Origin: a virus | Taxonomy: Duplodnaviria; Heunggongvirae; Uroviricota; Caudoviricetes | Direction: 5' to 3' (one strand) | Length of the DNA stretch: 40,665 nt | IMG/VR virus record: IMGVR_UViG_2687453300_000007 | Shown here: piece by piece, positions 4,791 through 39,067 of the stretch | Numbering within the stretch: position 1 is the stretch's first letter | How the letters are laid out: each line of letters begins with the position of its first letter | The notes under the pieces: generated by a model | What the model saw: only the letters and a program-made list of their open reading frames with translations | Told to the model about the DNA's origin: nothing | The model's database searches: none | Made by a program: the position numbers and the translations under genes

Positions 4791-5086
4791 GCACCATCAA
4801 CCACCAGAAGCTACGCGAACTGGCATTTGCCCTGCAACGAATGGCAACACCTCAAAAATTACTGGCATTTCGCGCAATGCTCTCGCCGTCTGCTGCGCTG
4901 GCATTGCTGGATGAGCTGGAGCACGCCAGAACCACGGCTCCTGCCATTCGCCTGACGCTCCATCATGAAATCGCTGATTTCTGCGCGACATTGGAGGTGC
5001 CAGGCGAACCGGAAACGCCGGAAGCAATACAGCAAGAGCTGCTGCAACGTATTGACAAGGTTTTTGATTTTTTTCTGAACCAGTAA
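4787..5086 (+). CDS. Hypothetical early protein (99 aa)
   Basis: Track ORF, translationally coupled to the upstream gene. Confidence 0.5.
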   Translation: MSTINHQKLRELAFALQRMATPQKLLAFRAMLSPSAALALLDELEHARTTAPAIRLTLHHEIADFCATLEVPGEPETPEAIQQELLQRIDKVFDFFLNQ

Positions 5087-8982: not shown

Positions 8983-9942
8983 ATGAAAATTTGTATCGAC
9001 GACGGCTCCACCAACATCAAGCTGGCATGGACTGAGAATGGCGAACGCCGCAACGCCATCAGCCCGAACAGCTTCAAGTCGGAATGGTCTGCGCCGTTCG
9101 GTGGCATGCAGCCCGCGAACTACATGCTTGATGGCGTGCGCTATGGTTTTGATCCGGTTAGCGATCGCTTTGTCCAGACGACCGACACGCAATACCAGTA
9201 CAGCGATGTGAATGTAATCGCCATTCATCACGCGCTGGTCAAATCAGGCATCACGCCACAGGAGGTGGATGTGGTTGTCACCCTGCCACTGAGCGAGTAT
9301 TTCGACACAAACGCACAGCCGGACATGGCCAACATCAACCGCAAAAAAGCGAACGTTATGCGCCCGGTGGAATACCAGAACGGCGAAGCATTCACTATCC
9401 GTAACGTGCGGGTTATGCCTGAATCCATTCCGGCTGGCTTTAAAGCACTGGCTGACATGAGTCCGTTTGAATCCCTGCTGATTGTGGATTTAGGCGGAAC
9501 CACGCTGGATGTGGCAAAGGTTCAAGGGCAACTGGCAGGTATCAGCCAGGTGTTTTGCGATCCACACGTAGGCGTTTCCCTGATGGCCGATGCCGTACTG
9601 TCGGTGATGGCCACTAACGGTATGCGCACCAGTCACCACATCGCCAATACCATTATCGAACATCGCCATGATGAAGCCTGGCTGCGCCAGCACATCCACA
9701 ATGACGCGCATTACGCCAGCCTGATGGCGGTTATTCGTGAAAAGGAAGAAACACTGAAACAACGCGTGATCCGCGCGCTGGCGGTTTTTTCGGGTTACGG
9801 GCGGGTGATGGTTGTCGGTGGAGGGGCGGAGATTGTGGCACCCGCTATCCGCGAAGTCTGCGGAGTTAATGCGACTTTCATCGCGGACGGGGTGCCACAG
9901 TTTGCTCTGGTTAATGGGCTGTACGCAATGGACAAGGAGTAA
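8983..9942 (+). CDS. parM: ParM/StbA-like actin-type segregation ATPase
   Basis: N-terminus MKICIDDGSTNIKLAW…ISPNSFK…YSDVNVIAIHHAL closely parallels plasmid R1 ParM as I recall it (MLVFIDDGSTNIKLQW…ISPNSFK…YSDVNVVAVHHAL). Also has the DxGGxT phosphate motif (IVDLGGTTLD). Confidence 0.8.
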   Translation: MKICIDDGSTNIKLAWTENGERRNAISPNSFKSEWSAPFGGMQPANYMLDGVRYGFDPVSDRFVQTTDTQYQYSDVNVIAIHHALVKSGITPQEVDVVVTLPLSEYFDTNAQPDMANINRKKANVMRPVEYQNGEAFTIRNVRVMPESIPAGFKALADMSPFESLLIVDLGGTTLDVAKVQGQLAGISQVFCDPHVGVSLMADAVLSVMATNGMRTSHHIANTIIEHRHDEAWLRQHIHNDAHYASLMAVIREKEETLKQRVIRALAVFSGYGRVMVVGGGAEIVAPAIREVCGVNATFIADGVPQFALVNGLYAMDKE

Positions 9943-9946
9943 ACCA

Positions 9947-10261
9947 ATGACGACACCAACCAGACGGATAAGTTTCTATCTGAAGCCCGCCGCCGTCAAG
10001 AGTGAACAGGAGGCGTGCAATTACCTCGATAGCCTGCCAGCCTCCGAACGCAGCCGCGCGCAACGCGCGGCCTTTCTGGCTGGGCTAGCGCTCATAAAGC
10101 GCAACCCAGCATTTGCCTACTGGATGGCCGAATGGCCAGAGGACAACCTCCCCTTCAATACCGTTAGCATCAAGGAAACATACCAGGATAATCAGCCTAG
10201 CGGAGTTGAATGCAATTTTTATAAAATAAAAAAGAATATTCAGACCTTATTCCCAGAATAA
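9947..10261 (+). CDS. parR: ParR-like centromere-binding protein (putative)
   Basis: ATG 9947 with AAGGAG SD 7 nt upstream, 5 bp after the parM stop. Segment RRISFYLKP…YLDSLPASERSRAQRAAFLAGLAL resembles the RHH N-terminus of R1 ParR (…LDSIPQGERSRLNRAALTAGLAL…). Confidence 0.65.
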   Translation: MTTPTRRISFYLKPAAVKSEQEACNYLDSLPASERSRAQRAAFLAGLALIKRNPAFAYWMAEWPEDNLPFNTVSIKETYQDNQPSGVECNFYKIKKNIQTLFPE

Positions 10262-20600: not shown

Positions 20601-20742
20601 CCCACCCACATGGGGAAACCTCGGAATATGGGGCGACCGCCTTCTGGATGCACTGGAAACCTGTAACGCGGATAAACGGGCCATTGCTGAACTGGATAAG
20701 AGAATAGCCGAACTGACACACCAGACGGGAGTAACACAATGA
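20431..20742 (+). CDS. o-spanin (Rz1/LysC-like lipoprotein)
   Basis: Alternate-frame ORF overlapping the i-spanin 3' end. Signal peptide with lipobox LLTGC, then a proline-rich segment. The start may instead be the internal ATG at 20461. Confidence 0.55.
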   Translation: MNSYATILQKMNAPTLCLTLVLLTGCAGTQNAPGPAPSVRLIPQTLTMPVTPPPFPDPPTWGNLGIWGDRLLDALETCNADKRAIAELDKRIAELTHQTGVTQ

Positions 20743-22616
20743 CCAGTAAGAACTTTGCACTGATTACAGCCATGACACAGGCTGAACTGACTCAAAAGGT
20801 GAATGAACATCTTGCGAAAGGGTGGCATCTTCAGGGGGAGACGCGGGTTGCCTACGAACCCGGCACCCCGTGGTATCTAATGCAGGCAATGGTGGCCGAT
20901 GGCACTACAGACATCTCACCTGATTCCCCCCAGCACGGCAGCGTGCCGGAGTGGTATTACGTGGTGGTACTTGCTGGTCAATCCAATGCCATGTCATATG
21001 GTGAGGGAATGCCGCTGCCGGATTCTTACGATGCGCCCCACCCACGCATTAAGCAACTGGCCCGTCGCAACACAGTGACTCCCGGTGGTAAAGCATGCGC
21101 ATTTAACGACATCATTCCGGCAGACCACTGCCTGCATGATGTTCAGGATATGAGCGCACTGAATCACCCGAATGCAGACCTGAGCAAAGGGCAGTATGGC
21201 TGTGTCGGACAGGGCTTGCATATTGCCAAACGCCTGTTGCCTTACATTCCACAGAATGCCGGGATTTTACTGGTTCCATGCTGTCGTGGTGGTTCGGCAT
21301 TCACCCAGGGCGCGGAGGGGACATTCAGCGAGTCCACAGGAGCCAGTCAGGATTCGGCTCGCTGGGGTGTGGGTAAACCTTTATATCAGGACCTGATTTT
21401 GCGCACGAAGGCCGCATTGCAGAAAAACCCAAAAAACATGCTGCTGGCCGTATGCTGGATGCAGGGCGAATTTGACATGAGCGCCGCTACGTACTCACAG
21501 CAACCTCCGCTGTTTACGGCCATGCTGAAACAGTTTCGTGCGGACATTACCGAGTTTAACACGCAGTGTCATGGAGGCAGAGCGGCAAGTGTGCCATGGA
21601 TTTGTGGTGACACGACGTATTACTGGAAAAACACCTACGGCACGCAGTACGACACCATTTACGGGGCGTACAAAAACAGGGAGAGCGACAACGTTTTCTT
21701 TGTGCCGTTCCTGACCGATGGTAGTGGCAACAATACCTCCACCAACGCACCAACGGAAGATCCGGATGCTGCAAGTGAGGGATATTACGGTTCGGCATCC
21801 CGAACGAACAAAAACTGGGTATCATCAAATCGCCAGACGCATTTCAGCTCATGGGCGCGTCGTGGCATTATTCCCGATCGTATGGCAACCGCTATTCTGA
21901 ACGTAGCCGGTCGCACCTTAGCCTTCATCAGTGGTAAGGCACCGGAAATCAAACCCTCGCCCGGCGGCGACACGCCATCGGGGCCGTCTGAAGATGCATC
22001 CGTACGCACAATCTCCCTGTTGCCGACAGCCGGAGATGCTGCTGCGCAGGGCTGGAGCATTAAGAATGGCGGAATTCAGTTGTCAGAGGGTGTATTTAAG
22101 ATCACCAAGCAGAGCAATAAAGCCTGGTCCCTGACGCGCCCGGTGGATGACGCAGTCTCCCTGCTGACACGGGGTGGCAGACTGAGCTGTAAGTTTCGAC
22201 TGTCAGGCGCACTGACCAACAATCAGTTCGGTCTGGGAATTTATCTGTATACCGATGTAGCGTTACCTGACGTCGTGGCGATGACCGGGACTGGTAACCC
22301 GTTCCTGATGTCGTTCTTCACCCAGACCACAGACGGCAAACTGAATCTGATGCATCACAAGAAAGCAGGAAACACAAAGTTGGGCGAGTTCGGGAATTAC
22401 AGTAACGACTGGCAGACGCTGGAGCTGGTGTTCACCGCCGGCAGTGCCACGGTTACTCCGAAACTGAATGGAGTGGCTGGCCCGGCATTCCAGGTCATAA
22501 AAGACAGTCTGACACTGGGGCTGAATGCGCTGACGTTAACTGATATCACTAAAAATGCCGCGTACGGCGTCGATATCGGCAGCCTGGTGCTGGAAATCAA
22601 TAATCCCGCAGCATAA
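20739..22616 (+). CDS. SGNH-family sialate O-acetylesterase-like protein (NanS-p-like) with N-terminal DUF1737-like region
   Basis: 625 aa. GQSNA motif (…VVVLAGQSNAMSYGEG…) typical of 9-O-acetylesterase/SASA-domain enzymes; N-terminus MTSKNFALITAMTQAELTQKVNEHLAKGWHLQGE… as in prophage NanS-p proteins. Inserted between the lysis genes and R. Confidence 0.75.
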   Translation: MTSKNFALITAMTQAELTQKVNEHLAKGWHLQGETRVAYEPGTPWYLMQAMVADGTTDISPDSPQHGSVPEWYYVVVLAGQSNAMSYGEGMPLPDSYDAPHPRIKQLARRNTVTPGGKACAFNDIIPADHCLHDVQDMSALNHPNADLSKGQYGCVGQGLHIAKRLLPYIPQNAGILLVPCCRGGSAFTQGAEGTFSESTGASQDSARWGVGKPLYQDLILRTKAALQKNPKNMLLAVCWMQGEFDMSAATYSQQPPLFTAMLKQFRADITEFNTQCHGGRAASVPWICGDTTYYWKNTYGTQYDTIYGAYKNRESDNVFFVPFLTDGSGNNTSTNAPTEDPDAASEGYYGSASRTNKNWVSSNRQTHFSSWARRGIIPDRMATAILNVAGRTLAFISGKAPEIKPSPGGDTPSGPSEDASVRTISLLPTAGDAAAQGWSIKNGGIQLSEGVFKITKQSNKAWSLTRPVDDAVSLLTRGGRLSCKFRLSGALTNNQFGLGIYLYTDVALPDVVAMTGTGNPFLMSFFTQTTDGKLNLMHHKKAGNTKLGEFGNYSNDWQTLELVFTAGSATVTPKLNGVAGPAFQVIKDSLTLGLNALTLTDITKNAAYGVDIGSLVLEINNPAA

Positions 22617-26085: not shown

Positions 26086-28071
26086 ATGAGTACCACAACA
26101 CGTAAATTTAAAACCGTTATCACCGATACGGGTGCCAAAAAATTAGCTCAGGCAGCCGCGCCAGATGGTAAGCCTGTCCGCCTGACTCATATGGCCGTGG
26201 GCGACGGTGGCGGCACGTTGCCCACACCAGACAGTAAGCAGACCCGTCTGGTGCATGAGGTGTGGCGACATACTGTTAATCGCGTCATCCTGGACGCAAC
26301 ACATCAGAACCGCATTATTGCGGAGCTGGTTATTCCTCCTGAAACGGGCGGATTCTGGATCCGGGAAATTGGTGTATTTGATGAGCACGGCGATTTAATC
26401 GCGGTGGGCAATACTGCCGAAAGTTACAAGCCAGCCGTTGCCGAAGGGTCCGGTCGTGCACAAACATTTCGCACCATTCTGACCGTATCCAGCACTGCCA
26501 CCGTGGTGCTTACCGTGGATAACACCATGGTGATGGCCACAGTGGATTACGTGGATGACAAACTGAAAGAGCATGAACAGTCACGACGTCACCCGGACGC
26601 CTCGCTGACCGCAAAAGGCTTTGTTCAACTCAGTAGCGCCACTAACAGCGTGTCTGAAACGCAGGCTGCAACGCCGAAAGCAGTAAAGGCCGCGTATGAC
26701 CTTGCTAACGGTAAATATACTGCGCAGGATGCCAGCACGACGCGAAAAGGCCTTGTCCAGCTCAGTAGCGCCACCAACAGCACGTCTGAAACGCAGGCTG
26801 CAACGCCGAAAGCAGTAAAGGCCGCGTATGACCTTGCTAACGCAAAATATACCGCTCAGGACGCCACGACGGCACAAAAAGGGATAGTCCAGCTCAGTAG
26901 TGCCACCAACAGCACGTCTGAAACACTGGCCGCGACATCGAAAGCTGTTAAGGCGGTAATGGATGAAACGAACAAGAAAGCGCCCTTAAATAGTCCTGCA
27001 CTGACCGGAACGCCAACAACACCAACTGCGCGACAGGGAACGAATAATACCCAAATCGCAAGCACGGCTTTCGTTATGGCTGCGATTGCCGCCCTTGTAG
27101 ATTCGTCACCTGATGCACTGAACACGCTGAACGAGCTGGCTGCGGCGCTGGGCAACGACCCGAATTTTGCGACCACCATGACTAACGCGCTTGCGGGTAA
27201 GCAACCGAAAGATGCCACCCTGACGGCGCTGGCCGGACTTACTACTGCGGCAGGCAAGTTTCCGTATTTTACGGGGAATGATGTCGCCAGCCTGGCAACC
27301 CTGACAAAAGTCGGGCGGGATATTCTTGCGAAATCGACCGTTGCTGCCGTTATCGAATACCTCGGTTTACGAGAACTCGGCACAAGCGGGGAGAAAATAC
27401 CGTTACTCAGTACAGCGAATACCTGGACCAATCGACAAACATTCAGCGGTGGCCTTTCTGGGGAACTGTCCGGCAATGCCGCTACTGCAACAAAGCTGAA
27501 AACAGCACGAAAAATTGCTGGAGTTGGTTTTGATGGTTCTAGCGATATTTCAATTAGTGCCAAAAATGTCAATGCATTTGCACTCCGACAAACAGGTAAT
27601 ACTGTTAATGGTGATACATCCGTTGGATGGAATTGGGATAGTGGTGCATATAACGCCATGATTGGTGGTGCATCTGCATTAATTCTTCACTTTAATATAA
27701 ATGCTGGTAGCTGTCCTGCCGTACAATTCCGTGTGAATTATAAAAATGGTGGCATTTCCTACAGGTCGGCTCGTGATGGTTATGGGTTTGAATTAGGTTG
27801 GTCAGATTTCTATACCACGACACGAAAACCTTCAGCGGGAGATGTTGGTGCATATACGCGGACAGAATGTAACTCAAGGTTTATTACAGGTATTCGCCTT
27901 GGCGGTCTGTCATCTGTTCAGACATGGAATGGTCCCGGCTGGTCTGACAGGTCAGGTTATGTCGTTACGGGTTCAGTTAACGGAAACCGTGATGAATTAA
28001 TTGATACAACACAGGCAAGGCCAATTCAGTATTGCATTAATGGGACGTGGTATAACGCGGGGAGTATTTAA
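26086..28071 (+). CDS. H: Tail fibre protein (P2 gpH-like), current orientation of the invertible tip
   Basis: 661 aa. The constant N-terminal part ends at the hix-like site near 27362; the C-terminal tip ends …INGTWYNAGSI. Confidence 0.9.
   Translation: MSTTTRKFKTVITDTGAKKLAQAAAPDGKPVRLTHMAVGDGGGTLPTPDSKQTRLVHEVWRHTVNRVILDATHQNRIIAELVIPPETGGFWIREIGVFDEHGDLIAVGNTAESYKPAVAEGSGRAQTFRTILTVSSTATVVLTVDNTMVMATVDYVDDKLKEHEQSRRHPDASLTAKGFVQLSSATNSVSETQAATPKAVKAAYDLANGKYTAQDASTTRKGLVQLSSATNSTSETQAATPKAVKAAYDLANAKYTAQDATTAQKGIVQLSSATNSTSETLAATSKAVKAVMDETNKKAPLNSPALTGTPTTPTARQGTNNTQIASTAFVMAAIAALVDSSPDALNTLNELAAALGNDPNFATTMTNALAGKQPKDATLTALAGLTTAAGKFPYFTGNDVASLATLTKVGRDILAKSTVAAVIEYLGLRELGTSGEKIPLLSTANTWTNRQTFSGGLSGELSGNAATATKLKTARKIAGVGFDGSSDISISAKNVNAFALRQTGNTVNGDTSVGWNWDSGAYNAMIGGASALILHFNINAGSCPAVQFRVNYKNGGISYRSARDGYGFELGWSDFYTTTRKPSAGDVGAYTRTECNSRFITGIRLGGLSSVQTWNGPGWSDRSGYVVTGSVNGNRDELIDTTQARPIQYCINGTWYNAGSI
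26614..27009 (+). repeat. Three tandem 132-bp (44-aa) repeats inside tail fibre H
   Basis: Units begin at 26614, 26746 and 26878 (KG[FLI]VQLSSATNS.SET[QL]AAT[PS]KAVKA… repeats), with near-identical DNA between copies 1 and 2. Confidence 0.8.
27350..27375. promoter_or_regulatory. hix/gix-like inversion crossover site (left)
   Basis: TTATCGAATACC-TC-GGTTTACGAGAA: 12-bp half-sites around a 2-bp core, matching the Hin/Gin recombination-site architecture. 23/26 identical to the reverse complement of the site at 30875..30900. Confidence 0.75.
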
Positions 28072-28073
28072 CG

Positions 28074-28607
28074 ATGATGCACTTAAAAAACATTACTGCT
28101 GGCAACCCTAAAACAAAAGAGCAATACCAGCTAACAAAGCAATTTAACATCAAATGGCTTTATTCAGCTGATGGAAAAAACTGGTATGAGGAACAAAAGA
28201 ATTTCCAGCCAGACACTTTGAAAATGGTCTATGACCATAACGGCGTTATTATTTGTATTGAAAAGGATGTTTCAGCAATTAATCCGGAAGGCGCAAGCGT
28301 CGTTGAATTACCTGATATTACAGCAAATCGCCGGGCTGATATTTCGGGGAAATGGATGTTCAAAGATGGCGTAGTGGTAAAGCGAACTTATACCGAGGAA
28401 GAGCAGAGGCAACAAGCGGAAAATGAAAAGCAGAGCCTGTTGCAACTTGTCAGGGATAAAACTCAGCTATGGGACTCACAGCTACGGCTGGGCATCATTT
28501 CCGACGAGAATAAACAAAAATTAACCGAGTGGATGCTCTATGCGCAGAAAGTCGAATCCACAGACACCTCCAGCCTGCCAGTAACATTTCCCGAACAACC
28601 TGAATGA
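28074..28607 (+). CDS. G: Tail fibre assembly chaperone (P2 gpG-like)
   Basis: 177 aa; N-terminus MMHLKNITAGNPKTKEQYQLTK… shared with the inverted copy at 28636..29163. Confidence 0.85.
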   Translation: MMHLKNITAGNPKTKEQYQLTKQFNIKWLYSADGKNWYEEQKNFQPDTLKMVYDHNGVIICIEKDVSAINPEGASVVELPDITANRRADISGKWMFKDGVVVKRTYTEEEQRQQAENEKQSLLQLVRDKTQLWDSQLRLGIISDENKQKLTEWMLYAQKVESTDTSSLPVTFPEQPE

Positions 28608-28611
28608 GACA

Positions 28612-28640
28612 AGGCCCGATAACGGGCCTTAATTTTTATT
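28612..28640 (+). terminator. Intrinsic terminator between G and G'
   Basis: Stem AAGGCCCG-ATAA-CGGGCCTT followed by AATTTTTATT. Confidence 0.55.
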
Positions 28641-29163
28641 CAGGCTTTTGTGGCCATTCAGGATTTGCCGTATCCACACGGTTGACCAGAACACTGTAGC
28701 GTTCCCATGCTTCCAGTCGTGTGCGTTCCTCGTCTGTTGCCATATTCAGCCTGACAGCGCGTTCCAGCGGCTGGATGACTGATTCAGCTTCGGAAAGCAA
28801 TGCGGCCTTTTGTGATTCGGCCTGTTGTTGCTGTTCGTCAGCCGTATAAATCCGTTTAACCACAGCTCCGTCCTTAAACATCCACTTACCGGAATCATCG
28901 GTCCGACGATTGGCCGTTATATCGGGAACCTCGACGACGCTAAAACCTTCGGGATTAAGCGTGGAGGCATCTCTGGTGATGGCGACAATAATATTATTTT
29001 CATCGTAAACAATCTTTATGGTGTCTGGCTGAAAGTTTTTCACTTCCTCATACCAGTTTTTTCCGTCCTCAGAGTAAAGCCAGATAACTCCGTGTTTCTT
29101 TGTTAACTCATACTGTTCCAGTGTTTTAGCATTACCCGCTTTTATGTTCTTTAAGTGCATCAT
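28636..29163 (-). CDS. Alternative tail fibre assembly chaperone (G')
   Basis: 175 aa on the minus strand with the same conserved N-terminus ([22 protein letters not shown]…) and a divergent C-terminus. Confidence 0.8.
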
Positions 29164-29697
29164 ATTAAACGCTCGCTACATTATACCAGGTGCCATTTAT
29201 ATACTTTTGAACGGGTCTGTAATAAACACCCGCTATATTATCGGCAGAGTTAGACCCTGTATCCTGAACATTAATACCAGACAATACATGACCTGAAGGG
29301 CACTGGAAATTCCATGTTCGCCAGTTGTTCACTCCATAATATTGCTGTGAACCAAGTCGAACATCTTTCACATAACGGGAATCAAAGTTACCGTAATCCG
29401 AGGGATTAACACGCCCCGTAATATTTATGGTCTTATTACTTTGAATGCTTCCGGGAACAAAGCGCATAACATGGACGTAATTAGCATAAACATCCAGATT
29501 ACCATCGCCATTTTGTTTAAAGCCCGTGTCATTATCACCCAATACAATCGAATTACCGCCAAGAGCACTGGATGTTCCGATACCCAGTGCACCATTCAGT
29601 TGACCACCAGATAACGGCAGTGCACCAACATCTCCTGCTGAAGGTTTTCTGGTGGTGGTGTAAAATTCGGACCAGTCGGCTTCAAAACCATAACCAT

Positions 29698-29706
29698 CAC
29701 GGGCTG
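29698..29706. repeat. IS1 target-site duplication (CACGGGCTG); partner copy at 30475..30483
   Basis: Identical 9-bp direct repeats immediately flank the 768-bp element. Confidence 0.9.
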
Positions 29707-29721
29707 GGTAATGACTCCAAC

Positions 29722-30225
29722 TTATTGATAGTGTTTTATGTTCAGATAATGCCCGATGACTTTGTCATGCAGCTCCACCGATTTTGAGAACGACAGCGAC
29801 TTCCGTCCCAGCCGTGCCAGGTGCTGCCTCAGATTCAGGTTATGCCGCTCAATTCGCTGCGTATATCGCTTGCTGATTACGTGCAGCTTTCCCTTCAGGC
29901 GGGATTCATACAGCGGCCAGCCATCCGTCATCCATATCACCACGTCAAAGGGTGACAGCAGGCTCATAAGACGCCCCAGCGTCGCCATAGTGCGTTCACC
30001 GAATACGTGCGCAACAACCGTCTTCCGGAGCCTGTCATACGCGTAAAACAGCCAGCGCTGGCGCGATTTAGCCCCGACATAGCCCCACTGTTCGTCCATT
30101 TCCGCGCAGACGATGACGTCACTGCCCGGCTGTATGCGCGAGGTTACCGACTGCGGCCTGAGTTTTTTAAGTGACGTAAAATCGTGTTGAGGCCAACGCC
30201 CATAATGCGGGCTGTTGCCCGGCAT
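29722..30225 (-). CDS. insB: IS1 transposase InsB
   Basis: 167-aa ORF matching IS1 InsB (…[38 protein letters not shown]…). Confidence 0.9.
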
Positions 30226-30419
30226 CCAACGCCATTCATGGCCATATCAATGATTTTCTGGTGCGTACCGGGTTGAGAAGCGGTGTAAGTGAACTGCAGT
30301 TGCCATGTTTTACGACAGTGAGAGCAGAGATAGCGCTGATGTCCGGCGGTGCTTTTGCCGTTACGCACCACCCCGTCAGTAGCTGAACAGGAGGGACAGC
30401 TGATAGAAACAGAAGCCAC
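30144..30419 (-). CDS. insA: IS1 InsA
   Basis: 91-aa [46 protein letters not shown]…, the zinc-finger/HTH InsA. Confidence 0.9.
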
Positions 30420-30874
30420 TGGAGCACCTCAAAAACACCATCATACACTAAATCAGTAAGTTGGCAGCATCACCCACGGGCTGAACGATAAAAAATACCG
30501 CCATTTTTATAATTAATCCGAAACTGAGCTGCAGGACAACTTCCGTCTCCCATATAAAAATGAATAATTAACGTTGATGCACCACCAATATTTGCGTTAT
30601 AGGCTCCGCTACTCCAGTTCCATCCAACTGCTTTATCATTCGCAACGGTGCTTCCTGTTTTCCCTAAGGCAAACGCACCAACATGACTTGCTTTTAATGT
30701 GATATCGGAGGAACCATCAAAAGCCACATTGCTTATTTTCCTGGCAGTTTTTAATTTTGCAGCTGTAGAAGCATTGCCGGATAGTTCACCAGAAAGGCCA
30801 CCGCTGAATGTTTGTCGATTAGTCCAGGTATTCGCTGTACTGAGTAACGGTATTTTCTCCCCGCTTGTGCCGAG

Positions 30875-30900
30875 TTCTCGTAAACCGAGGTTTTAAATAA
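30875..30900. promoter_or_regulatory. hix/gix-like inversion crossover site (right)
   Basis: TTCTCGTAAACC-GA-GGTTTTAAATAA, in inverted orientation relative to 27350..27375 with a complementary core dinucleotide. About 55 bp upstream of the invertase start. Confidence 0.75.
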
Positions 30901-30954
30901 TGGCCGTTTCTGGCCTGCATGGCATGATTTGCGCTTTTGGACGGGAGATTCAGT

Positions 30955-31554
30955 GTGCTGATTGGCTATGTAAGGGTATCAACAAATGACCAGAATACAG
31001 ACCTGCAACGAAACGCTCTTGTTTGTGCAGGATGTGAACAAATATTTGAAGATAAATTAAGCGGGACAAAGACAGACCGACCGGGATTAAAACGCGCTTT
31101 AAAGCGCCTTCAAAAAGGTGACACGCTGGTTGTCTGGAAACTGGATCGCCTCGGGCGAAGCATGAAACATCTGATTTCTCTCGTCGGGGAACTACGGGAG
31201 CGAGGGATTAATTTTCGCAGTCTGACCGACAGCATAGACACATCTTCTCCAATGGGGCGTTTTTTCTTCCACGTGATGGGTGCCCTGGCTGAAATGGAAC
31301 GTGAATTAATTGTTGAACGTACACTGGCCGGGCTGGCGGCAGCGCGCGCAAGGGGGCGCACAGGCGGACGTCGACCGAAGCTGACAAAAGAACAGCATGA
31401 GCAAATAGCAAGGCTAATCAAAAACGGGCACGACAGAAAACAACTGGCAATAATTTACGGCATTGGCACATCGACGATTTATCGTTATCACCCTGTAGGC
31501 GATATACAGACTGAAGAAACAACCGGGCAGACTCAGGAAAATGAAAACCGCTAA
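30955..31554 (+). CDS. Serine DNA invertase (Gin/Hin/Pin family)
   Basis: GTG 30955 start with GGGAG SD. (M)LIGYVRVSTNDQNTDLQRNAL…LVVWKLDRLGRSM…GINFRSLTDSIDTSSPMGRFFFHVMGALAEMERELIVERT… closely resembles the e14 Pin / Mu Gin family, with a C-terminal HTH. Confidence 0.9.
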   Translation: MLIGYVRVSTNDQNTDLQRNALVCAGCEQIFEDKLSGTKTDRPGLKRALKRLQKGDTLVVWKLDRLGRSMKHLISLVGELRERGINFRSLTDSIDTSSPMGRFFFHVMGALAEMERELIVERTLAGLAAARARGRTGGRRPKLTKEQHEQIARLIKNGHDRKQLAIIYGIGTSTIYRYHPVGDIQTEETTGQTQENENR

Positions 31555-31576
31555 TCTGACCATTAGCGGTTTTTGT
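31544..31576. terminator. Bidirectional intrinsic terminator between the invertase and U
   Basis: Stem ACCGCTAAT-CTGACC-ATTAGCGGT flanked by A-run and T-run. Confidence 0.6.
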
Positions 31577-31582
31577 GTTAAA

Positions 31583-32077
31583 TCAGAACAGCCCTTTAAC
31601 TGAACTGGCCGCGCTGTTAAGAGATGATGTCACCTTATCTTTGAAGCCGGACAGCATATCACTGAACGATGAGGATTGCAGGCGCTCCCGCAAATCCTCA
31701 TCACAGCGTTCAAGAGTCAGTGAAAATTCTATCTTTTTCGCCTTACCGTAGCGATCAAACTCGGAGCGGGTCGTATTCGTTTCAGTCAGGACATACATGC
31801 CGTAAATCTGCCCGACGCCATCAATCAAAGGCCAGGGTCGTCCTGTATACGCCTGCGTGGTCAGCAGCGACAGCGACACTTCGCCACCTGTAATTTCAGG
31901 ATAAAGCACACCAGAAAGAACGATGCGATCATCACCTGCACCGATATACTGCCAGCTTGCTGAACGGTTAACGCGTTCATTTTTCACATGCCGCCAGCTT
32001 TTGTTTTGCTGTAACTGCTGATGCGGCAGCGTGCGCAGCTCAAAAACAAACATGCCGTAGATCATCATCATGGCCAT
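31583..32077 (-). CDS. U: Tail protein (P2 gpU-like)
   Basis: 164-aa ORF following the tape measure gene on the minus strand. Confidence 0.75.
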   Translation of the reverse strand: MAMMMIYGMFVFELRTLPHQQLQQNKSWRHVKNERVNRSASWQYIGAGDDRIVLSGVLYPEITGGEVSLSLLTTQAYTGRPWPLIDGVGQIYGMYVLTETNTTRSEFDRYGKAKKIEFSLTLERCDEDLRERLQSSSFSDMLSGFKDKVTSSLNSAASSVKGLF

Positions 32078-32083
32078 GACTCC

Positions 32084-34899
32084 TCAATCTTTATCGTAAA
32101 AACTGCCACGCCCGGCACGGGCGCGCCGTTCCATTTCTGCCCTGACCATTTCACCGACCAGTTTCGCCAGTTCGCGGGGATTCTGCGTAACAACGTTATG
32201 CAGATGAACATGAATTTCACCACCAAATCCGGAGGCAACAGGCTCCCGGTTACGGGAAGTTACAGGAACTGATGCCACTGGAGATCGTATAGCCTCCGCC
32301 ACCGGGCGGGAGCTGGCCGCAACAACAGGGACCAGCGCCGGAGGCAGCGGAGCCGGGACCACGGGTGTGATATTAATTGCGGGGGCAGGCTTACTGACCT
32401 GCGCAATCTTCCGCTCCTGCCACTCCCCACGAACAGCAAGTGCTCGGGGCAGGTTTTTAAAGACAATATCGCCGGGGCCAATGCGTTTTTTCGTCTCCTC
32501 AACCAGCTTACCTGTGTTATCAGCAATTTTGCTGAGTCTGCGCAGCGTACCGGTATTGCTGTCTGTGAGCGGTTTATTGTCTTTGGGGTTATCACCTCCG
32601 GTGCCATTGCCATTTTCCACAGGCTTCGGCGGATTGATTTTCGCCAGGTCCCCCTGAAGCAAGGCAACCTTGTCCTGAAGAATGGCCGCACGCTGTGCGT
32701 CTTCGATTTTCTTGCGCGCCCTTTCCGCTTCATCCGGAAGCACACCAAGCTTTTCAAGTATCCACGCCAGCGTATCCAGCAACATTTTTGCAGGTGTCAG
32801 AACAAGTTGTAACGCACCGCCAAGAACGTTACCGAATATCTCGCCAGCACTGGTACATTTATCCAGAGTTTCCTTGCTGGACTCCATCGGAGACAGCAGC
32901 GATTTAAACCAGTTAAACACCTGGCTGATCCCACTCCCGATTGCGTCAAAAACAGGACCAAACCGTTCAAAGGTTTCGCGCAACGGGGTCAGCCTTTCCA
33001 TAATCCCGCTGAACACCCCGGCAAAAAATGCCCTGATGGGATCCCAGTATTTCCAGATGAGAACGGCAGCTCCGGCAAGCGCAGCCACGATAAGGCCGAC
33101 CGGACTGAACAACGCCCCGATAGCGCCCCCAGTAACGAAACGGAACCCGTCACCATTCCCCATAGTGCTGGCAGGAGTCTGACAGCATTCATTGAACCGG
33201 TCAGGAGGGAAAAGCCAAGACGCAGTTTTGCCAGCGGGCCAGCAAGCACACCAATAGCCAGCGACAACGAGCCAACCGTTGCAGTCATTGCCAGCAACGC
33301 ACCGCCTGCTATCAGTAGCTGGCGCGTCAGTACCGGATGGGCCTGCGCCAGCGAGGTGATTTTTTCAAGCACCCGCGTGAGCCACTGCGTGACAGAACGC
33401 AGCGGACCGTCAACCAGATCACTGATGCGAATACGAAGACCTTCCCATGCGCTGTCGAGATTTTTCAGGTCCCCATCAAGATTATCGGCCATTACTTTTG
33501 CAACGCGATCGGCCTCTCCCCTTGCCCCCTGCAATTCTCTGGTCAGTTTTTGCAGCTCTCCTGAACCAGCCGCCGCAACAAGCGTCTGCAAACCAACGAA
33601 CGCCTCTTCTCCGGCGATGTCCTTGAAGAAGGAAACCTGGTCCACCTGTCCGTATTTTTGTGTCGCCTTATAGAGATCAAGCAGCACATCCTCCATCGGG
33701 CGCATTTTGCCTCTGGCGTCAGCAACTGACACCCCCAGCTCTTTCAGCGCATCAGCCGCAGCTTTTGGCGGTGATGCAAGGCGGGACAGACTTGCGCGCA
33801 TGGCCGTACCAGCATCGCTTCCACGAAGACCATTATTGGCAAGCATCCCGGCCATGGCTGCCGCTTCTTCAAGACTGATACCAAGTTTTGCGGCAACCGG
33901 ACCGGTATACTTCATGGTTTCGCCCAGCGCGCGTAAATCAGTATTGGTCCGGGTGAATGCCGCTGTCAGCGTATCGCCAACCCGGTCCATTTGATCGGCT
34001 GTCAGGTTGAACTGTGTGAGGATATTGGAGCCTATATCAGCCGTCTCGCCGAGTTCGACGCCACCTGCCAGCGCCATATTAAGAACACCGGGCAATGCGG
34101 CCTGAATGGCCTGCGGAGTAAAACCAGCCATTGCCAGAAAGCTCTGCCCACTGGCGGCATCACTCGCAGTAAACTGTGTTTCAGAGCCAAGTTTTAACGC
34201 CTGCTCACGCAGCGCCTTAAACTGCGGGCTGTTTTTGTCGATTCGCGTCAGCGCCTGAACGCGGGACATCTCTTTGCCGAACCCGATCGCGGGCTGCAAA
34301 AAACGCCCGGCAGCATAGCCGCCCGCCGCTGCCGCACCAATTGCCAGCGCACCACCTGTTTTCAGTTTTCCCGCGGTTTCCTGCGCGCGCGAATACCGCT
34401 CACGAGCCTGCGTTACACGCGCAAGCGCCTGCCGTTCGCGTTCAAGCTGGTTGTTGTATTGTTCGGTGCGTCTGATGGCCTGCTGGATGGTGTTATCGCT
34501 GCCTGTCAGGGAAATGCCGTGGCGTTTCAGTTCTCCGCCAAGCTCCCGCATTTTCTGAATTTCCCGTGTGCGCGATTCATTCAGGCGTTCAAGCCGGGTG
34601 CTTAACTGCTGCATCAGCTTTTGTTGTTTTTCGCTGAGCACTGTACCCGTGCGTTGTAACTGATTAAGGGCGTTAAGCTGGCGTCGTGCTTTCACGATAC
34701 CCGCATCCGCTTTACTGACAGCGTCGCGGGCGCGCTCAAATGAACGCGCCTGACGCTCGAGATTTTTGATCGCCCCCTGCGTTCGCTGAATGGAGTCACC
34801 AAACTGCCCCATCAGGCGGCGGGCGTTTTCGGCAGGCCGGGTCAGCCTGTCAACGGCGCTGAAAGCGACCCGGATGTCAAGAGTCTTCATTATCTGCAT
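32084..34899 (-). pseudogene. T: Tail tape measure protein (P2 gpT-like), apparently frameshifted
   Basis: Two overlapping minus-strand ORFs (32989..34926 and 32084..33163) both look like genuine tape-measure sequence and overlap by about 175 bp in frames offset by one nucleotide. A C5/G5 homopolymer lies at 33126..33130. Could be a real inactivating frameshift or a sequencing error. Confidence 0.55.
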
Positions 34900-35113
34900 T
34901 CCCGCTGCGAAGTGCCGCCCGCTCACGCCAGCTAACCACTTCGCCGGGCGTCATCATGAAGATTTCGGCGGGCGACCAGTTGAAAATGGCGGCAATATCC
35001 GCCACCAGATCTTCGATGTGCTCAAAGCACACCAGGGTGATTACGCTGCCGTCTCCTGCACGCTCTTCGCGCCAGAGTCTGGCTCGCTCATAAAATTTAC
35101 AGCCACAGCGCAC
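34877..35113 (-). CDS. E' extension reached by -1 frameshift (E+E' chaperone)
   Basis: ORF in the -1 frame relative to E, overlapping the E 3' end, with a run of seven A (plus-strand T at 35139..35145) in the overlap. Confidence 0.45.
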   Translation of the reverse strand: MRCGCKFYERARLWREERAGDGSVITLVCFEHIEDLVADIAAIFNWSPAEIFMMTPGEVVSWRERAALRSGNADNEDS

Positions 35114-35415
35114 AACTGAATAAAATCGCGTGACGACATTTTTTTAATCATCACTTCATCCAGTCGTGGCGAGGTCACGCGAGGCAACAGCGTGAACATG
35201 GTATCCGCTTTCAGATTCAGCACATCAGACAGCGACAGACCACGCAGGGATCCCGCCTGCTCAATAGCCCCGGTGATCTCCACATATGTGATTTTTTCGG
35301 CACCACGCTCAATTGGCCGGGAAAGTTTTACACCACGTTCGACAGCCATATCCTCACCTGACGTCACATCATCCGCTACGGTGTTATTCCGGGTTTCAGT
35401 ATCGATATCTTTCAT
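35041..35415 (-). CDS. E: Tail assembly chaperone (P2 gpE-like)
   Basis: ORF upstream of the tape measure gene on the same strand; the true start may be an internal ATG. Confidence 0.6.
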   Translation of the reverse strand: MKDIDTETRNNTVADDVTSGEDMAVERGVKLSRPIERGAEKITYVEITGAIEQAGSLRGLSLSDVLNLKADTMFTLLPRVTSPRLDEVMIKKMSSRDFIQLCAVAVNFMSEPDSGAKSVQETAA

Positions 35416-35470
35416 CAGTTGTCTCCTTTTCAGTCAGAGGCGACGCACTGCGCCGCCTGCATATTACTTA

Positions 35471-35983
35471 TCAGCCAAGCCCAAGCGCGGAACGAATGCG
35501 GTCAGGCACAATGTCCTTGCCGTCCTTCCGGTAGATGTGGTTCAACAGGTCGATTTCCCACAGCGGGCGATCGTTAACGCTCAGCTTGTAGTAGGTGTTT
35601 TTGACAGCGTAAGTGTGTGATGTGGCTTCGCCCTGTTTGGCCTCCCCCATATCAATTTCCGTCACACGCCCGCGCATCTCGATTTCATACAGATCGCTTT
35701 CTGCATCGGTGTAATATTCACCCGCAAAACGCAGCAGCGTGCCGTCAATCGTGCCGCCATACTTAAGGAACAGTGCACGAACAGCTCCCCCCATGACAAA
35801 GCTCGCATCAAGCGCGGAGTCGTCCAGACCGAGATCAATACTTACTGCTCCCATCATGCCACCACCACGATAGCTGTCGGTTTTGCGCGTCAGTTTGGGC
35901 GGCGTGACGGATGTCACTTTACCCACTTCGTTTTCACCATCCACAAACAACGTAAAAAAGCGAAGATGTTTTGGTACAGCCAT
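35471..35983 (-). CDS. FII: Tail tube protein (P2 gpFII-like)
   Basis: 170 aa, directly downstream of the sheath gene. Confidence 0.85.
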   Translation of the reverse strand: MAVPKHLRFFTLFVDGENEVGKVTSVTPPKLTRKTDSYRGGGMMGAVSIDLGLDDSALDASFVMGGAVRALFLKYGGTIDGTLLRFAGEYYTDAESDLYEIEMRGRVTEIDMGEAKQGEATSHTYAVKNTYYKLSVNDRPLWEIDLLNHIYRKDGKDIVPDRIRSALGLG

Positions 35984-37167
35984 CAGGCACCTCCCAGCAC
36001 CGCAAATGCGGGACCAAAGAATTCATCAGTAAACGTCTGGTAAAGCTCCATGTCTTCCAGCGGGGGAACGGGCGTATATTTGTAGCGAATACGCACACGC
36101 CCCTGACGTAAATCCGTGGTGCCGTTATCCACCACGTCATACCAGCACTCCGCGCCAATCAGTTTCCCGGCAGTAACCAGCGAATCCAATTTTGCCCTGA
36201 TGGCACTGATAACATCCTTCACGTTCGCAGGCGTCAGTGGACTGTCGATGGTTTCAAACTGCGCTTCCGCAATTGAATCAGCCAGCACCTGTGCGGTTCG
36301 GGTATACACCTCAAAGATGTAGGCGTTCGTTTCCGGTGTGCGGTTGCCCCAGAAGCGGAACCCGTTACGACGAATAATGGTCGTGATTTCTTTGTTGTTG
36401 AGGCTGTTGGCATCACTGTCTTCGGCCTGTAACGACCAGAACACATGCCTCGACATCCCCAGCACATTTTTAACCGGAACGTTGGACAGCGATTTGTGCC
36501 AGCCCTGCTCATGGTCAATGTACGCACGAAGGCCGCACGCATAAGCAGGCGCGGGGAACGTTTCGTTTTTGCCACTTTTCGGGTTGTAGGCGATGAAGTC
36601 AGGCCATAAGAGCATCACCTCACGTTCGTTGAATTTCTGGCGGTAGGTAATCGCCTCAGCCATCGTGTTACAACCATGACATGTGGCATACACAAACGCG
36701 CGCAGTTTACCCGCAATCACGCACAGGGATTTTGTCACCGCCTCCGTGTCCAGCTCCGGCGCGGCCAGAATACGCGGACGGTATCCGATGCTTTCATCCT
36801 GCTCTGCAACAAGCAGCGCATACATCCCCGTATAGCTGCCGTCAGATTCAGAACCACCGATAACCAGTTGATCCTGCGTCCTACCGCCTTCTTCTTTGTG
36901 TTCAGCCACGCGAACGACGATCACTTTTGTGCTCACCTGGTCTGCGATAGCCTTAAGCGCACGATAAAGCGTCCCCGTAGTCCCGCATTTTCCCAGCACG
37001 TCATTGACGCGGGTCAGCAGTGTGGGCTTGTTCAGCGGGAACAGCTCCGCATCCGCATCATCCGCCGTTGCCACGATACCGATAACGCTGGAATCAACAT
37101 CATTAATCGCTGTTACCAGGTCGGTACTTTCCGTGACACGGGCACCATGAAAACGAGTTTCACTCAT
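35983..37167 (-). CDS. FI: Tail sheath protein (P2 gpFI-like)
   Basis: 394 aa. Motifs …DADAELFPLNKP…, …FRFWGNRT…, …YKYTPVPPLE… parallel P2 FI. Confidence 0.9.
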   Translation of the reverse strand: MSETRFHGARVTESTDLVTAINDVDSSVIGIVATADDADAELFPLNKPTLLTRVNDVLGKCGTTGTLYRALKAIADQVSTKVIVVRVAEHKEEGGRTQDQLVIGGSESDGSYTGMYALLVAEQDESIGYRPRILAAPELDTEAVTKSLCVIAGKLRAFVYATCHGCNTMAEAITYRQKFNEREVMLLWPDFIAYNPKSGKNETFPAPAYACGLRAYIDHEQGWHKSLSNVPVKNVLGMSRHVFWSLQAEDSDANSLNNKEITTIIRRNGFRFWGNRTPETNAYIFEVYTRTAQVLADSIAEAQFETIDSPLTPANVKDVISAIRAKLDSLVTAGKLIGAECWYDVVDNGTTDLRQGRVRIRYKYTPVPPLEDMELYQTFTDEFFGPAFAVLGGA

Positions 37168-37324
37168 AGCTTCAGCCCCTTGTATCCGTTAAATGATTCG
37201 GCAACAATCATCACCCACCACGCGCGTAATCTCACCCCTGCGCCGTTCTCCCGCCACGGCGACAACAAAAAGCAGTAACCCCCTCCGCACGCACATGCGA
37301 CCATGCCGCACAGGGAGGGAGCAG

Positions 37325-38434
37325 ATGACCGACACCACCATGCAATTGCTCAGTCAGGGCACAGACCCCGTGAAAATGCCGGATTTTGATATTCTCGCGG
37401 AGGGTAAAACGCTGTCAGGCGTGGCAGAGCGCCTGATGAGCCTGTCACTGACCGACAACCGGGGATTTGAGGCGGACCAGCTCACCATCACGCTGGATGA
37501 TGCGGATGGTCAGTTGCAGCTACCGCCACGGGGCGCGCGCCTGACGGTTCTCATTGGCTGGAAAGGAGAACCGCTGACAGAAAAAGGCACTTACATTGTT
37601 GATGAAATCGCTCACGAAGGACCGCCGGACAGGCTGACTGTTTCAGCCAGAAGCGCAGATTTTCGGGATGAATTTAACGTTAAACGTGAGGTGTCCTGGC
37701 ATGATGTGACCGTTGAGCGTGTGGTATCCGCCATCGCTCATCGGTATGGTCTGAAACCGCAAATCAGCGAAATGCTGATGGATATCGAAATCGACCACGC
37801 CGACCAGACCGAAGAAAGCGACATGTCCTTCCTTACGCGCATGGCGGAAATGCTGGGCGCAATCACCACGGTAAAAAGCGGTAATCTGTTATTCATCATG
37901 CCCGGCGGTGGCGTGAACGCACAGGGCCAGCCGTTGCCATCGTTTGCCATCACACGCAGCAGCGGCGATCGCCATCAGTTCCGCATTGCTGACCGCGAAG
38001 CGTATACGGGGGTACGCGCTTACTGGCTTGATCTTAATTACGGGAAAAAGAAAAAAGTCAGCGTGAAACGCCGTAAACCGCCAAAACCCAAAAAGGAGAA
38101 AAGCAGCAGCCGCGAAGGTGATTATATGGAAGGCGCGGAAGGCAATGTGTTTGTGTTACGCAAGACTTATCAGAACGAGCAGGCAGCAAGACGCGCAGCG
38201 GCGGCAAAGTGGCAGCAACTACAACGCGGAGCCGCATCATTCTCCATCACGCTGGCGCGTGGACGTGCAGAACTCTACCCCGAAATGCATGGCACGGTAA
38301 CAGGATTTAAAAGCGAGATTGATAATCAGGACTGGATCATTGCAAAAGCCGAGCACACCATTGATAACAGCGGTTTTACCACGCAGCTTGAGCTTGAGGC
38401 AAAAATCCCGGAATGGATAGCGGAAACAGAGTGA
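37325..38434 (+). CDS. D: Tail protein / late control protein D (P2 gpD-like)
   Basis: Start set at ATG 37325 after GGGAGGGAG SD (the track ORF starts further upstream). About 370 aa. Confidence 0.8.
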   Translation: MTDTTMQLLSQGTDPVKMPDFDILAEGKTLSGVAERLMSLSLTDNRGFEADQLTITLDDADGQLQLPPRGARLTVLIGWKGEPLTEKGTYIVDEIAHEGPPDRLTVSARSADFRDEFNVKREVSWHDVTVERVVSAIAHRYGLKPQISEMLMDIEIDHADQTEESDMSFLTRMAEMLGAITTVKSGNLLFIMPGGGVNAQGQPLPSFAITRSSGDRHQFRIADREAYTGVRAYWLDLNYGKKKKVSVKRRKPPKPKKEKSSSREGDYMEGAEGNVFVLRKTYQNEQAARRAAAAKWQQLQRGAASFSITLARGRAELYPEMHGTVTGFKSEIDNQDWIIAKAEHTIDNSGFTTQLELEAKIPEWIAETE

Positions 38435-38823: not shown

Positions 38824-39009
38824 ATGTGGAAAGGCCCCGAGTCAACTTTAACGTTAACCCGAGGCCCTAACCATCTACCCTCAGCAAGTGATAGGTTAGC
38901 GCCTCCCCGAAAAAGGAGCAAGCGCTATGTCGCAAAAATCGCTTACGGCCATCACATTCTGCGTGACGGCAATCCTCATCATCTGGATGCTGCACGGTTC
39001 GCTGTGTGA
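38824..39009 (+). CDS. Possible mok-like overlapping reading frame
   Basis: 61-aa ORF starting upstream of and overlapping the hok-like ORF in another frame, as in hok/mok/sok loci. Composition is weakly protein-like. Confidence 0.25.
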   Translation: MWKGPESTLTLTRGPNHLPSASDRLAPPRKRSKRYVAKIAYGHHILRDGNPHHLDAARFAV

Positions 39010-39067
39010 AATACGGATGAGTTTCTGGGGAGCGGAGTTTGCGGCGTTCTTACAGTGTAAGCAGTAA
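38927..39067 (+). CDS. Hok/Gef-family type I toxin (46 aa), putative
   Basis: ATG 38927 with AAGGAG SD 8 nt upstream. MSQKSLTAITFCVTAILIIWMLHGSLCEIRMSFWGAEFAAFLQCKQ: N-terminal TM helix followed by the SLCE(I/L) … AAF(L) pattern seen in Hok/Gef toxins. Below the ORF-track size cutoff. Confidence 0.55.
   Translation: MSQKSLTAITFCVTAILIIWMLHGSLCEIRMSFWGAEFAAFLQCKQ

Follow-up and report, generated by a model that had tools for sequence, protein, structure and literature searches.

Invertible Gin-type tail-fibre segment of prophage Phi1 in Escherichia coli ST131, with its silent alternative tip split by IS1 in strain JJ1887

The window, that is, the whole stretch of 40,665 nt analyzed in this study, is the reverse complement of positions 946015-986679 of the genome of Escherichia coli JJ1887 (ST131; NZ_CP014316.1). 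All the virion genes of a P2-family phage were present in it, on a backbone that is P2-like by gene content, and the host element is prophage Phi1 of strain EC958, which lies at the chromosomal position beside serS in E. coli ST131. This prophage belongs to the P2 family (Peduoviridae, P88-like Xuanwuvirus).

The tail-fibre gene H (26086-28071, plus strand) encodes a protein of 661 aa (full H-A). Its constant N-terminal part (codons 1-421; 26086..27349, plus strand) contained a P2-type fibre N-terminal domain (Pfam PF12571, 2.5e-53) and three Phage_fiber_2 repeats (PF03406 x3, 3.5e-61), as well as three 132-nt tandem repeats at 26595-26954. The expressed variable C-terminus, tip A (27376..28071, plus strand), was of the Mu S' type, with 88% identity to Mu S' over its C-terminal 165 aa and a weak match to gp37_C. 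It is followed by its cognate tail-fibre assembly chaperone gene, G (28074..28607, plus strand; Caudo_TAP, 3.6e-37), whose product was 97% identical to Mu U'. The arrangement of these genes agreed with a preliminary description of this DNA, which had placed the current H tip and G on the plus strand between two crossover sites. The alternative chaperone, G' (28636..29163, minus strand; Caudo_TAP, 4.2e-38), is the cognate of a second tip, tip B, and shared 90% identity with Mu U. G and G' are convergent, and a GC-rich, terminator-like hairpin followed by a T-run, found between them by pattern matching at 28611..28630 (AAGGCCCGATAACGGGCCTT), probably acts as a bidirectional terminator.

Tip B was present on the minus strand as two pieces separated by an insertion sequence. 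The distal fragment (29165..29706), which carries the receptor-binding end, matched the end of P2 gpH with 87.6% identity over its distal 177 aa, against just 51% to Mu S over 83 aa, and the proximal fragment (30475..30874) comprises about 133 codons between the right crossover site and the insertion. The inserted element (29707..30474, minus strand) is annotated as IS1A family in RefSeq and showed the features of IS1, including a length of 768 bp, perfect terminal inverted repeats, the insA and insB' reading frames (insA 30144-30419 and insB 29722-30225, minus strand; PF03400 2.3e-78, PF12759, and PF03811), and a 9-bp target duplication, CACGGGCTG. One copy of the duplication (29698-29706) lies in the distal fragment and the other (30475-30483) in the proximal one. 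The fragmented minus-strand open reading frames of this region were also considered as extra alternative cassettes, but they proved to be insA and insB of IS1 and the two halves of one tip.

When IS1 and one copy of the duplication were removed, tip B became an open tip of 319 aa, and in-silico inversion produced a fused H-B protein of 740 aa followed by G'. Thus, in the IS1-free sequence the constant part joins in frame to either tip, each with its own chaperone, and both tips are intact in IS1-free relatives; in the window, tip B is interrupted, and in-silico inversion of JJ1887 as it stands gave a truncated H of 564 aa with a stop just inside IS1. The alternative G' reported on the minus strand by the preliminary description was confirmed, whereas the H' tip reported beside it is split, and the predicted fusion of H to an alternative tip holds for IS1-free relatives but would yield the truncated fibre here. 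The IS1 junction was found only in JJ1887 among 5,426 genomes and was absent from the sister isolate JJ1886. A second record retrieved with the junction query (Ec-23, H192) was rejected, as it matched in two pieces over 757 bp with 94% identity and had a different junction. The insertion in JJ1887 is recent.

Two 26-bp sites in inverted orientation, each with imperfect 12-bp half-sites around a 2-bp core and with matching cores, bound the region. The left gix-like site (27350..27375, plus strand), TTATCGAATACC-TC-GGTTTACGAGAA, has its core at 27362-27363 and lies within H codons 422-430, and the right gix-like site (30875..30900, minus strand) reads TTATTTAAAACC-TC-GGTTTACGAGAA on the minus strand, with its core at 30887-30888. 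The two sites differed at three positions, all within the outer half-site, and a match this close did not arise in any of 100 shuffles. Positions, half-sites, and cores were as given in the preliminary description, and so was the count of 425 constant N-terminal codons, as codon 426 of H is the one that contains the crossover core. Alignment to Mu gix (TTATCCAAAACCTCGGTTTACAGGAA) gave 22 of 26 matching positions for the left site (four mismatches) with a shared TC/GA core. Also, the left and right sites were identical to Phi1_5prime (Table 3) and Phi1_3prime, respectively, of the published EC958 analysis (PMC4134206). Searches of the window with the full 26-mer (up to three mismatches) and with the core AAACCNNGGTTT (up to one mismatch) returned these two sites only; a multi-inversion system like p15B Min was ruled out by this absence of a third or secondary crossover site in the window.

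The sites are embedded in an inverted repeat (27346-27515 and 30735-30904) of 170 nt with 89% identity. Homology between the tips was perfect over 70 nt (27359-27428) and amounted to 76% over 520 nt with IS1 removed, comparable to the imperfect repeat of 508 bp and 77% identity described by Forde et al. (PMC4134206). The earlier estimate that homology ends about 100 bp inward from the sites was therefore too low, the real extent being approximately 500 bp.

The gene for a Gin-family serine DNA invertase of 199 aa (30955..31554, plus strand; GTG start) begins 55 bp past the right site, outside the segment, where the preliminary description had located a Pin/Gin-family enzyme. The protein had the features of a small serine recombinase, with a resolvase domain (PF00239, 1.4e-50), a C-terminal helix-turn-helix (HTH_7, PF02796, 4e-13), and the motif MLIGYVRVSTNDQ containing the catalytic Ser9; no NCBIfam model matched at the curated cut-off. 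Its identity to Mu Gin was 84.5% over 181 aa, and its top PDB matches were Gin structures (4M6F, E=3e-100; 3UJ3, E=1.4e-99) aligned to Gin residues 1-183. Residues related to Fis dependence were likewise conserved, namely the Q-x-x-R-L patch as EQIARL (...HEQIARLIK...), which contacts Fis and lies in helix 1 of the DNA-binding domain (PMC3798978), and Met114 (...ALAEMEREL...), whose replacement in M114V renders Gin Fis-independent (PMC3575834). The same invertase accession, WP_000905061.1, occurs in JJ1887, JJ1886, and strain 4/1-1. In phage systems with such invertases, the cis-acting recombinational enhancer has two Fis sites and sits near the start of the invertase gene. The Mu enhancer is placed inside the invertase gene by Kahmann 1985, as cited in PMC3798978. 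Of the initial 200 nt of the gene in the window (30955..31154), 197 (98.5%) matched the corresponding stretch of Mu gin, and this near-identity to Mu suggests that a Fis-dependent recombinational enhancer with Fis binding is to be expected somewhere within them.

Inversion of the IS1-free element occurs in cultures of EC958 and across genomes. Forde et al. (2014; PLoS One 9:e104400; PMC4134206) described Phi1 of EC958, listed both 26-bp sites, and reported an invertible segment of 2773 bp with approximately 50% of PacBio reads in each orientation, from an ordinary culture of a lysogen. Over H, G, G', tip B, and the invertase, EC958 DNA and the window showed 100% identity once IS1 was set aside. 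Two junctions were searched for in 5,426 complete E. coli genomes at an identity of at least 99%; that of H with tip A was found in about 133 records, and that of H with tip B, built in silico, in about 106. These counts derive from identity bands for the best place in each record and are approximate, perhaps including a few partial matches. At the same chromosomal position, strain 4/1-1 matched the in-silico inverted, IS1-free window with one mismatch in 10,291 nt, and its annotation contains a 2223-nt fibre gene in the H-tip B state. The expectation that both orientations exist was thus borne out among the relatives of JJ1887, both as a polymorphism between genomes and within the EC958 reads, while the assembly of JJ1887 has a single orientation, which is also that of JJ1886.

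Sequence comparison can place the crossover only within the identical 70 nt at 27359-27428 and not at the 2-bp core, and such a stretch would suffice for RecA. It could be argued from this that the genome inversions arose by RecA-dependent homologous recombination between the inverted repeats of about 500 bp. However, an inverted fraction of about 50% of reads in one culture far exceeds the expectation from 70 nt of homology, the arms are only about 76% identical beyond that stretch, and the locus has an invertase close to Gin, 26-bp sites of canonical form whose cores match, and an enhancer region nearly identical to that of Mu. A RecA-dependent origin is therefore highly improbable.

Taken together, the sites, genes, and domains, with the inversion observed in EC958 and among genomes, support the earlier reading of a Gin/Hin/Pin-type invertible tail-fibre segment in a P2-like prophage, and the locus is very probably the Gin-type invertible segment of the ST131 prophage Phi1, with tip B split by IS1 in JJ1887. 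The Gin-like invertase, encoded just outside the segment, would bind the two inverted gix-like sites, and host Fis, on the enhancer expected near the start of the invertase gene, might assist the reaction. Cleavage at the TC/GA core and strand rotation by 180 degrees would then flip the 3.55-kb segment (3551 bp; 2.77 kb without IS1). The present orientation would express the 425 constant H codons with tip A (Mu S'-type) and then G (Mu U'-type), and the other would express H with tip B (P2 gpH-type) and then G' (Mu U-type), presumably with changed receptor specificity.

The JJ1887 copy as it stands is not a functional two-host switch, because IS1 truncates the alternative tip. A flip would leave a 564-aa fibre without the distal receptor-binding end, and the expression of G' would probably be lowered by IS1 polarity. 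The switch of JJ1887 is expected to alternate between a working and a broken fibre if flipping continues, and IS1 has likely reduced it from a choice between two specificities to one that turns fibre production on or off. The segment might instead be frozen in JJ1887, with the sites and the invertase as relics, for example if the invertase is silent in a repressed or decaying prophage. The single orientation in the JJ1887 assembly and in JJ1886 is compatible with this, as is the decay of the JJ1887 prophage, whose tip B is interrupted by IS1 and whose tape-measure gene is frameshifted. Nevertheless, EC958, in which about half of the reads are inverted, has exactly the same invertase protein, pair of sites, and enhancer region. 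In addition, IS1 lies far from the sites and the enhancer and only makes the segment longer. At 3.55 kb, the segment remains in the size range spanned by the Mu G (about 3 kb) and P1 C (about 4 kb) segments. A frozen segment is thus very unlikely.

The tape-measure gene of JJ1887 is frameshifted at 33131, and the prophage may be defective for this reason; therefore, the switch may lack a phenotype in this strain. The FI-FII-E-E'-T-U tail block (31583-37167), which lies on the opposite strand, was considered as a second, larger inversion by the invertase, but no convincing flanking inverted repeats were found, and the same order in phage 520873 indicates a lineage trait. Gene D appeared truncated in RefSeq (801 nt), but its reading frame is open over 413 codons (37193-38434), so that only the choice of start site differs.

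The segment could also mainly serve the bacterial host, for example through a fibre-derived protein that blocks the adsorption of other phages. Such an effect was reported in 2025 for PinQ and e14 StfE2, so that a defensive function of an invertible fibre segment in a prophage has a precedent (PMC12529663), and the element has been kept across ST131, where either orientation is common. Within the window, nothing points to such a role, the complete P2-family virion genes make a phage host-range role sufficient, and IS1 and the tape-measure frameshift in JJ1887 resemble neutral decay; we consider a main benefit to the host very unlikely. It is also very unlikely, on our analysis, that in a lysogen that goes on flipping the segment the fibre products of one orientation, perhaps including the IS1-truncated H of JJ1887, would act at the cell surface and alter susceptibility to other phages. 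Such a surface role, if true, would explain the retention of a highly active switch across ST131 despite prophage decay.

The host-range switch of Phi1 is already published, and its class, that of Mu Gin and the G segment, is standard textbook material. The novelty implied by the remark that P2 itself has no such switch was therefore not upheld, and the same layout is present in related phages, Escherichia phage 520873 among them. As a discovery, the locus is of small importance, as the exact element was described in 2014 with direct read evidence. The sole new point is that IS1 breaks the currently silent alternative tip in JJ1887; the JJ1887 genome announcement mentions neither IS1 nor the inversion. 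This case indicates that the silent side of a phase-variable locus can deteriorate without being noticed, so that a host-range switch is left with a single working orientation. IS1 and the tape-measure frameshift are also markers that separate JJ1887 from the near-identical JJ1886. For annotators and assemblers, the locus is heterogeneous within cultures, and complete ST131 genomes are divided roughly half per orientation.

Compared with known systems, Phi1 of EC958 is the same element, with identical sites at the same location by serS and inversion seen directly in PacBio reads; JJ1887 differs by the 768-bp IS1 with its 9-bp duplication (segment of 3551 versus 2773-2774 bp) and by the additional 1-bp frameshift in the tape-measure gene. 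The Mu G segment with Gin, as in the related D108 and SfMu, shares the order constant part, site, tip, chaperone, convergent chaperone', tip', and site, and its invertase likewise points away. Unlike in Mu, an H N-terminus of P2 type that carries Phage_fiber_2 repeats takes the place of Mu Sc as the constant part, tip B resembles P2 gpH rather than Mu S, the inverted repeats reach about 500 bp into the tips whereas those of Mu are short, and the segment resides in a Peduoviridae prophage rather than in a transposable phage. The P1/P7 C segment with Cin, the e14 P segment with Pin, and the Salmonella H segment with Hin use serine invertases of this same family, which depend on Fis and an enhancer and recombine 26-bp sites. 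C-segment DNA of P1/P7 was 90-93% identical to 27612-29210 of the window; Cin is located on the other side, with long repeats of 0.6 kb, and Hin inverts a promoter and not gene ends. P2 shares the backbone gene content and the gpH C-terminus resembling the distal part of tip B, and has, to our knowledge, a single H tip and no invertase; its tail block FI-FII-E-E'-T-U is on the opposite strand in the present lineage (Xuanwuvirus, e.g., 520873). Phage 520873, an Escherichia phage of Xuanwuvirus, has the same switch layout as Phi1.

The fibre gene H (26086-28071, plus strand) encodes a 661-aa protein with a P2-type fibre N-terminal domain and three Phage_fiber_2 repeats, and is followed by the assembly chaperone gene G (28074-28607, plus strand), a second chaperone gene G' (28636-29163, minus strand), and an invertase gene with a GTG start (30955-31554, plus strand). 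Both chaperones belong to the Caudo_TAP family, and the 199-aa invertase carries Resolvase and HTH_7 domains. A GC-rich hairpin with a T-run (28611-28630) lies between the convergent genes G and G'. This layout agrees with the preliminary description for H, G, G', and the invertase, including an invertase start about 55 bp outside the right crossover site (55 bp found); the minus-strand alternative tip (H', or tip B), in contrast, is not a single open frame owing to IS1. Additionally, the three Phage_fiber_2 repeats are encoded by tandem 132-nt repeats in constant H (26595-26954, 75-88% identical), a possible source of variation in fibre-shaft length.

The two inverted 26-bp sites described earlier were recovered at 27350-27375 (plus strand, TTATCGAATACC-TC-GGTTTACGAGAA) and 30875-30900 (read on the minus strand, TTATTTAAAACC-TC-GGTTTACGAGAA). 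They differ at three positions, all within the outer half-site, and a comparable match was absent from 100 dinucleotide-preserving shuffles; no third crossover site was found within the window. Both sites are enclosed by a 170-nt inverted repeat (27346-27515 and 30735-30904, 89% identity). The homology of about 100 bp previously ascribed to the two tips was too short an estimate: it comprises 70 nt of perfect identity (27359-27428), 170 nt at 89%, and, with the IS1 offset of 777 bp removed, 520 nt at 76%. The 2-bp core falls at codon 426 of H, and inversion would swap the 3' end of the fibre gene together with its chaperone.

The orientation of the segment was examined in 5,426 complete E. coli genomes by using two 801-nt junction queries, constant H joined to tip A (the currently expressed 3' end) and constant H joined to IS1-free tip B, the latter produced by in-silico inversion at the cores. 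At an identity of at least 99%, the tip A junction was found in 133 records and the tip B junction in 106 (approximate identity-band counts, with which evenly spaced listings agree), whereas a query aligned to the wrong orientation at only 85.9% identity. In strain 4/1-1, the tip B fusion is located at approximately 958 kb, a position common to JJ1887 and EC958, and its 10.8-kb locus differs from the in-silico inverted, IS1-free window by one mismatch in 10,291 nt, the comparison ending at a 1-bp indel within the tape-measure gene. The anatomy of the segment and its inversion in IS1-free copies are established. The outer half-sites are unmoved in 4/1-1 and the exchange was placed within 27359-27428, core included; RecA acting between the repeats is an unlikely source of this inversion, and standard Gin-type, Fis/enhancer-dependent site-specific inversion is very probably the best explanation.

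The invertible segment of the window is already published. Three invertible tail-fibre segments were reported in the ST131 strain EC958, and the sites listed in Table 3 for its prophage Phi1, 'gccgTTATCGAATACCTC GGTTTACGAGAA' and 'gccaTTATTTAAAACCTC GGTTTACGAGAA' (Forde et al. 2014, PMC4134206), are identical to the pair in the window. The Phi1 segment was described as 2773 bp within a 508-bp imperfect inverted repeat of 77% identity, with about 50% of PacBio reads in the other orientation (PMC4134206). Over 26800-31600, the window and EC958 agree at 100% identity apart from IS1. A second prophage fibre gene in the same ST131 genomes (e.g., NZ_CM190148.1 2428489-2429289) showed 97% identity to the tip B junction and is probably that of EC958 Phi4, whose own invertase is truncated and which the Phi1 invertase, the enzyme encoded in the window, was suggested to flip in trans (Forde et al., PMC4134206).

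Translation of the minus-strand alternative tip revealed IS1 InsA and InsB sequences in shifted frames. Exact matches to both IS1 ends delimited a 768-bp element (29707-30474) with a 9-bp target duplication, CACGGGCTG, on either side; the transposase domains were confirmed by Pfam, and RefSeq annotates an IS1A-family element at this position. Removing IS1 and one copy of the duplication in silico reopened tip B (319 aa), giving a fused H-B protein of 740 aa, while inversion with IS1 present would yield a 564-aa H ending ...FYRSARG*, without the distal 176 residues. A 301-nt IS1/tip-B junction query matched fully only in JJ1887 among the 5,426 genomes. JJ1886, a near-identical isolate obtained from the sister of the patient (PMC4866839), shares the prophage and its orientation, and its tip B fragment of 894 nt is unbroken. 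The JJ1887 genome announcement (PMC4866839), which gives 66,442 PacBio reads averaging 10.9 kb, makes no mention of the insertion. The IS1 insertion is private to JJ1887 and recent. A switch frozen in this strain is unlikely; flipping presumably continues and is expected to alternate a working Mu-S'-type fibre with a truncated one, and IS1 may exert polarity on G'. This strain-private lesion in the silent cassette is the sole addition to published knowledge. JJ1886 G' (NC_022648.1 956746-957283; L006, the JJ1886 locus, 6747-7284) is annotated as frameshifted, which may be a further minor divergence within the silent half or a sequencing error; JJ1887 G' is intact.

The window reproduces NZ_CP014316.1 946015-986679, from the chromosome of E. 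coli JJ1887 (ST131-H30Rx), exactly in reverse complement and holds a complete P2-family prophage, with the integrase gene at one side and serS at the other. For the invertible segment, a host-level role resembling PinQ/StfE2 is unlikely. The prophage encodes integrase, repressor/Cox, replication endonuclease, portal, terminase, scaffold, capsid, and lysis functions, as well as R, S, V, W, J, I, H, G, the invertase, a tail block, D, and ogr. The tail block FI-FII-E-E'-T-U (31583-37167) is encoded by the minus strand, opposite to H, G, the invertase gene, D, and ogr (plus strand), an order unlike that of canonical P2. Escherichia phage 520873 (Peduoviridae, Xuanwuvirus) shares this order, and also the H-G-G'-H'-invertase module; therefore, the orientation is a lineage feature and a local rearrangement was ruled out. 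No meaningful inverted repeats bordering the block were found.

In the minus-strand tape-measure gene (approximately 32084-34926), JJ1887 has C5 at 33131 versus C6 in 4/1-1, which splits the gene into two overlapping ORFs (labelled 'frameshifted' in RefSeq); it is intact (2808 nt) in JJ1886 and 4/1-1, and intact in EC958 too. The C5 run may reflect either genuine inactivation by mutation or a sequencing error in the homopolymer, and because of this frameshift the JJ1887 prophage may be defective anyway. A 1878-nt DUF6645 protein gene (20739-22616) between the lysis cassette and tail genes R/S looks like inserted cargo (moron), since phage 520873 lacks a gene there (4835-4973 of its locus, L004). 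ParM-like segregation and plasmid partition/stability genes in the early region (8983-10261) hint at a plasmid-like maintenance module, and a Hok/Gef-family toxin gene (38927-39067) sits between serS and the prophage-end gene ogr. Gene D (37193-38434) is annotated in RefSeq as 801 nt plus a small fragment, yet its ORF is open for 413 codons; it is probably intact, with the annotated start too far downstream.

The window sites match Mu gix at 22 of 26 positions, and the invertase is 84.5% identical to Mu Gin over 181 aa, its top solved-structure matches being the Gin entries 4M6F (E=3e-100) and 3UJ3 (E=1.4e-99). The nucleophile Ser9 and Met114 are kept; Gin M114V is Fis-independent (PMC3575834). 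The Q-x-x-R-L patch, to which Fis contact is assigned in Fis-dependent invertases (McLean et al., PMC3798978), reads EQIARL here, and we infer that the inversion depends on Fis. The Mu enhancer is placed within gin (Kahmann 1985, as cited in PMC3798978), and the first 200 nt of the two invertase genes differ at three positions. G is 97% identical to Mu U' and G' 90% identical to Mu U. The C-terminal 165 aa of tip A are 88% identical to Mu S', while the C-terminal 83 aa of tip B are only 51% identical to Mu S and its distal 177 aa are 87.6% identical to the P2 gpH C-terminus. Receptor specificities presumably come with the tips; by the likeness of tip A to Mu S' and of tip B to P2 gpH, the module sets two kinds of tip, Mu-S'-type and P2-H-type, on a fibre shaft of P2 type.
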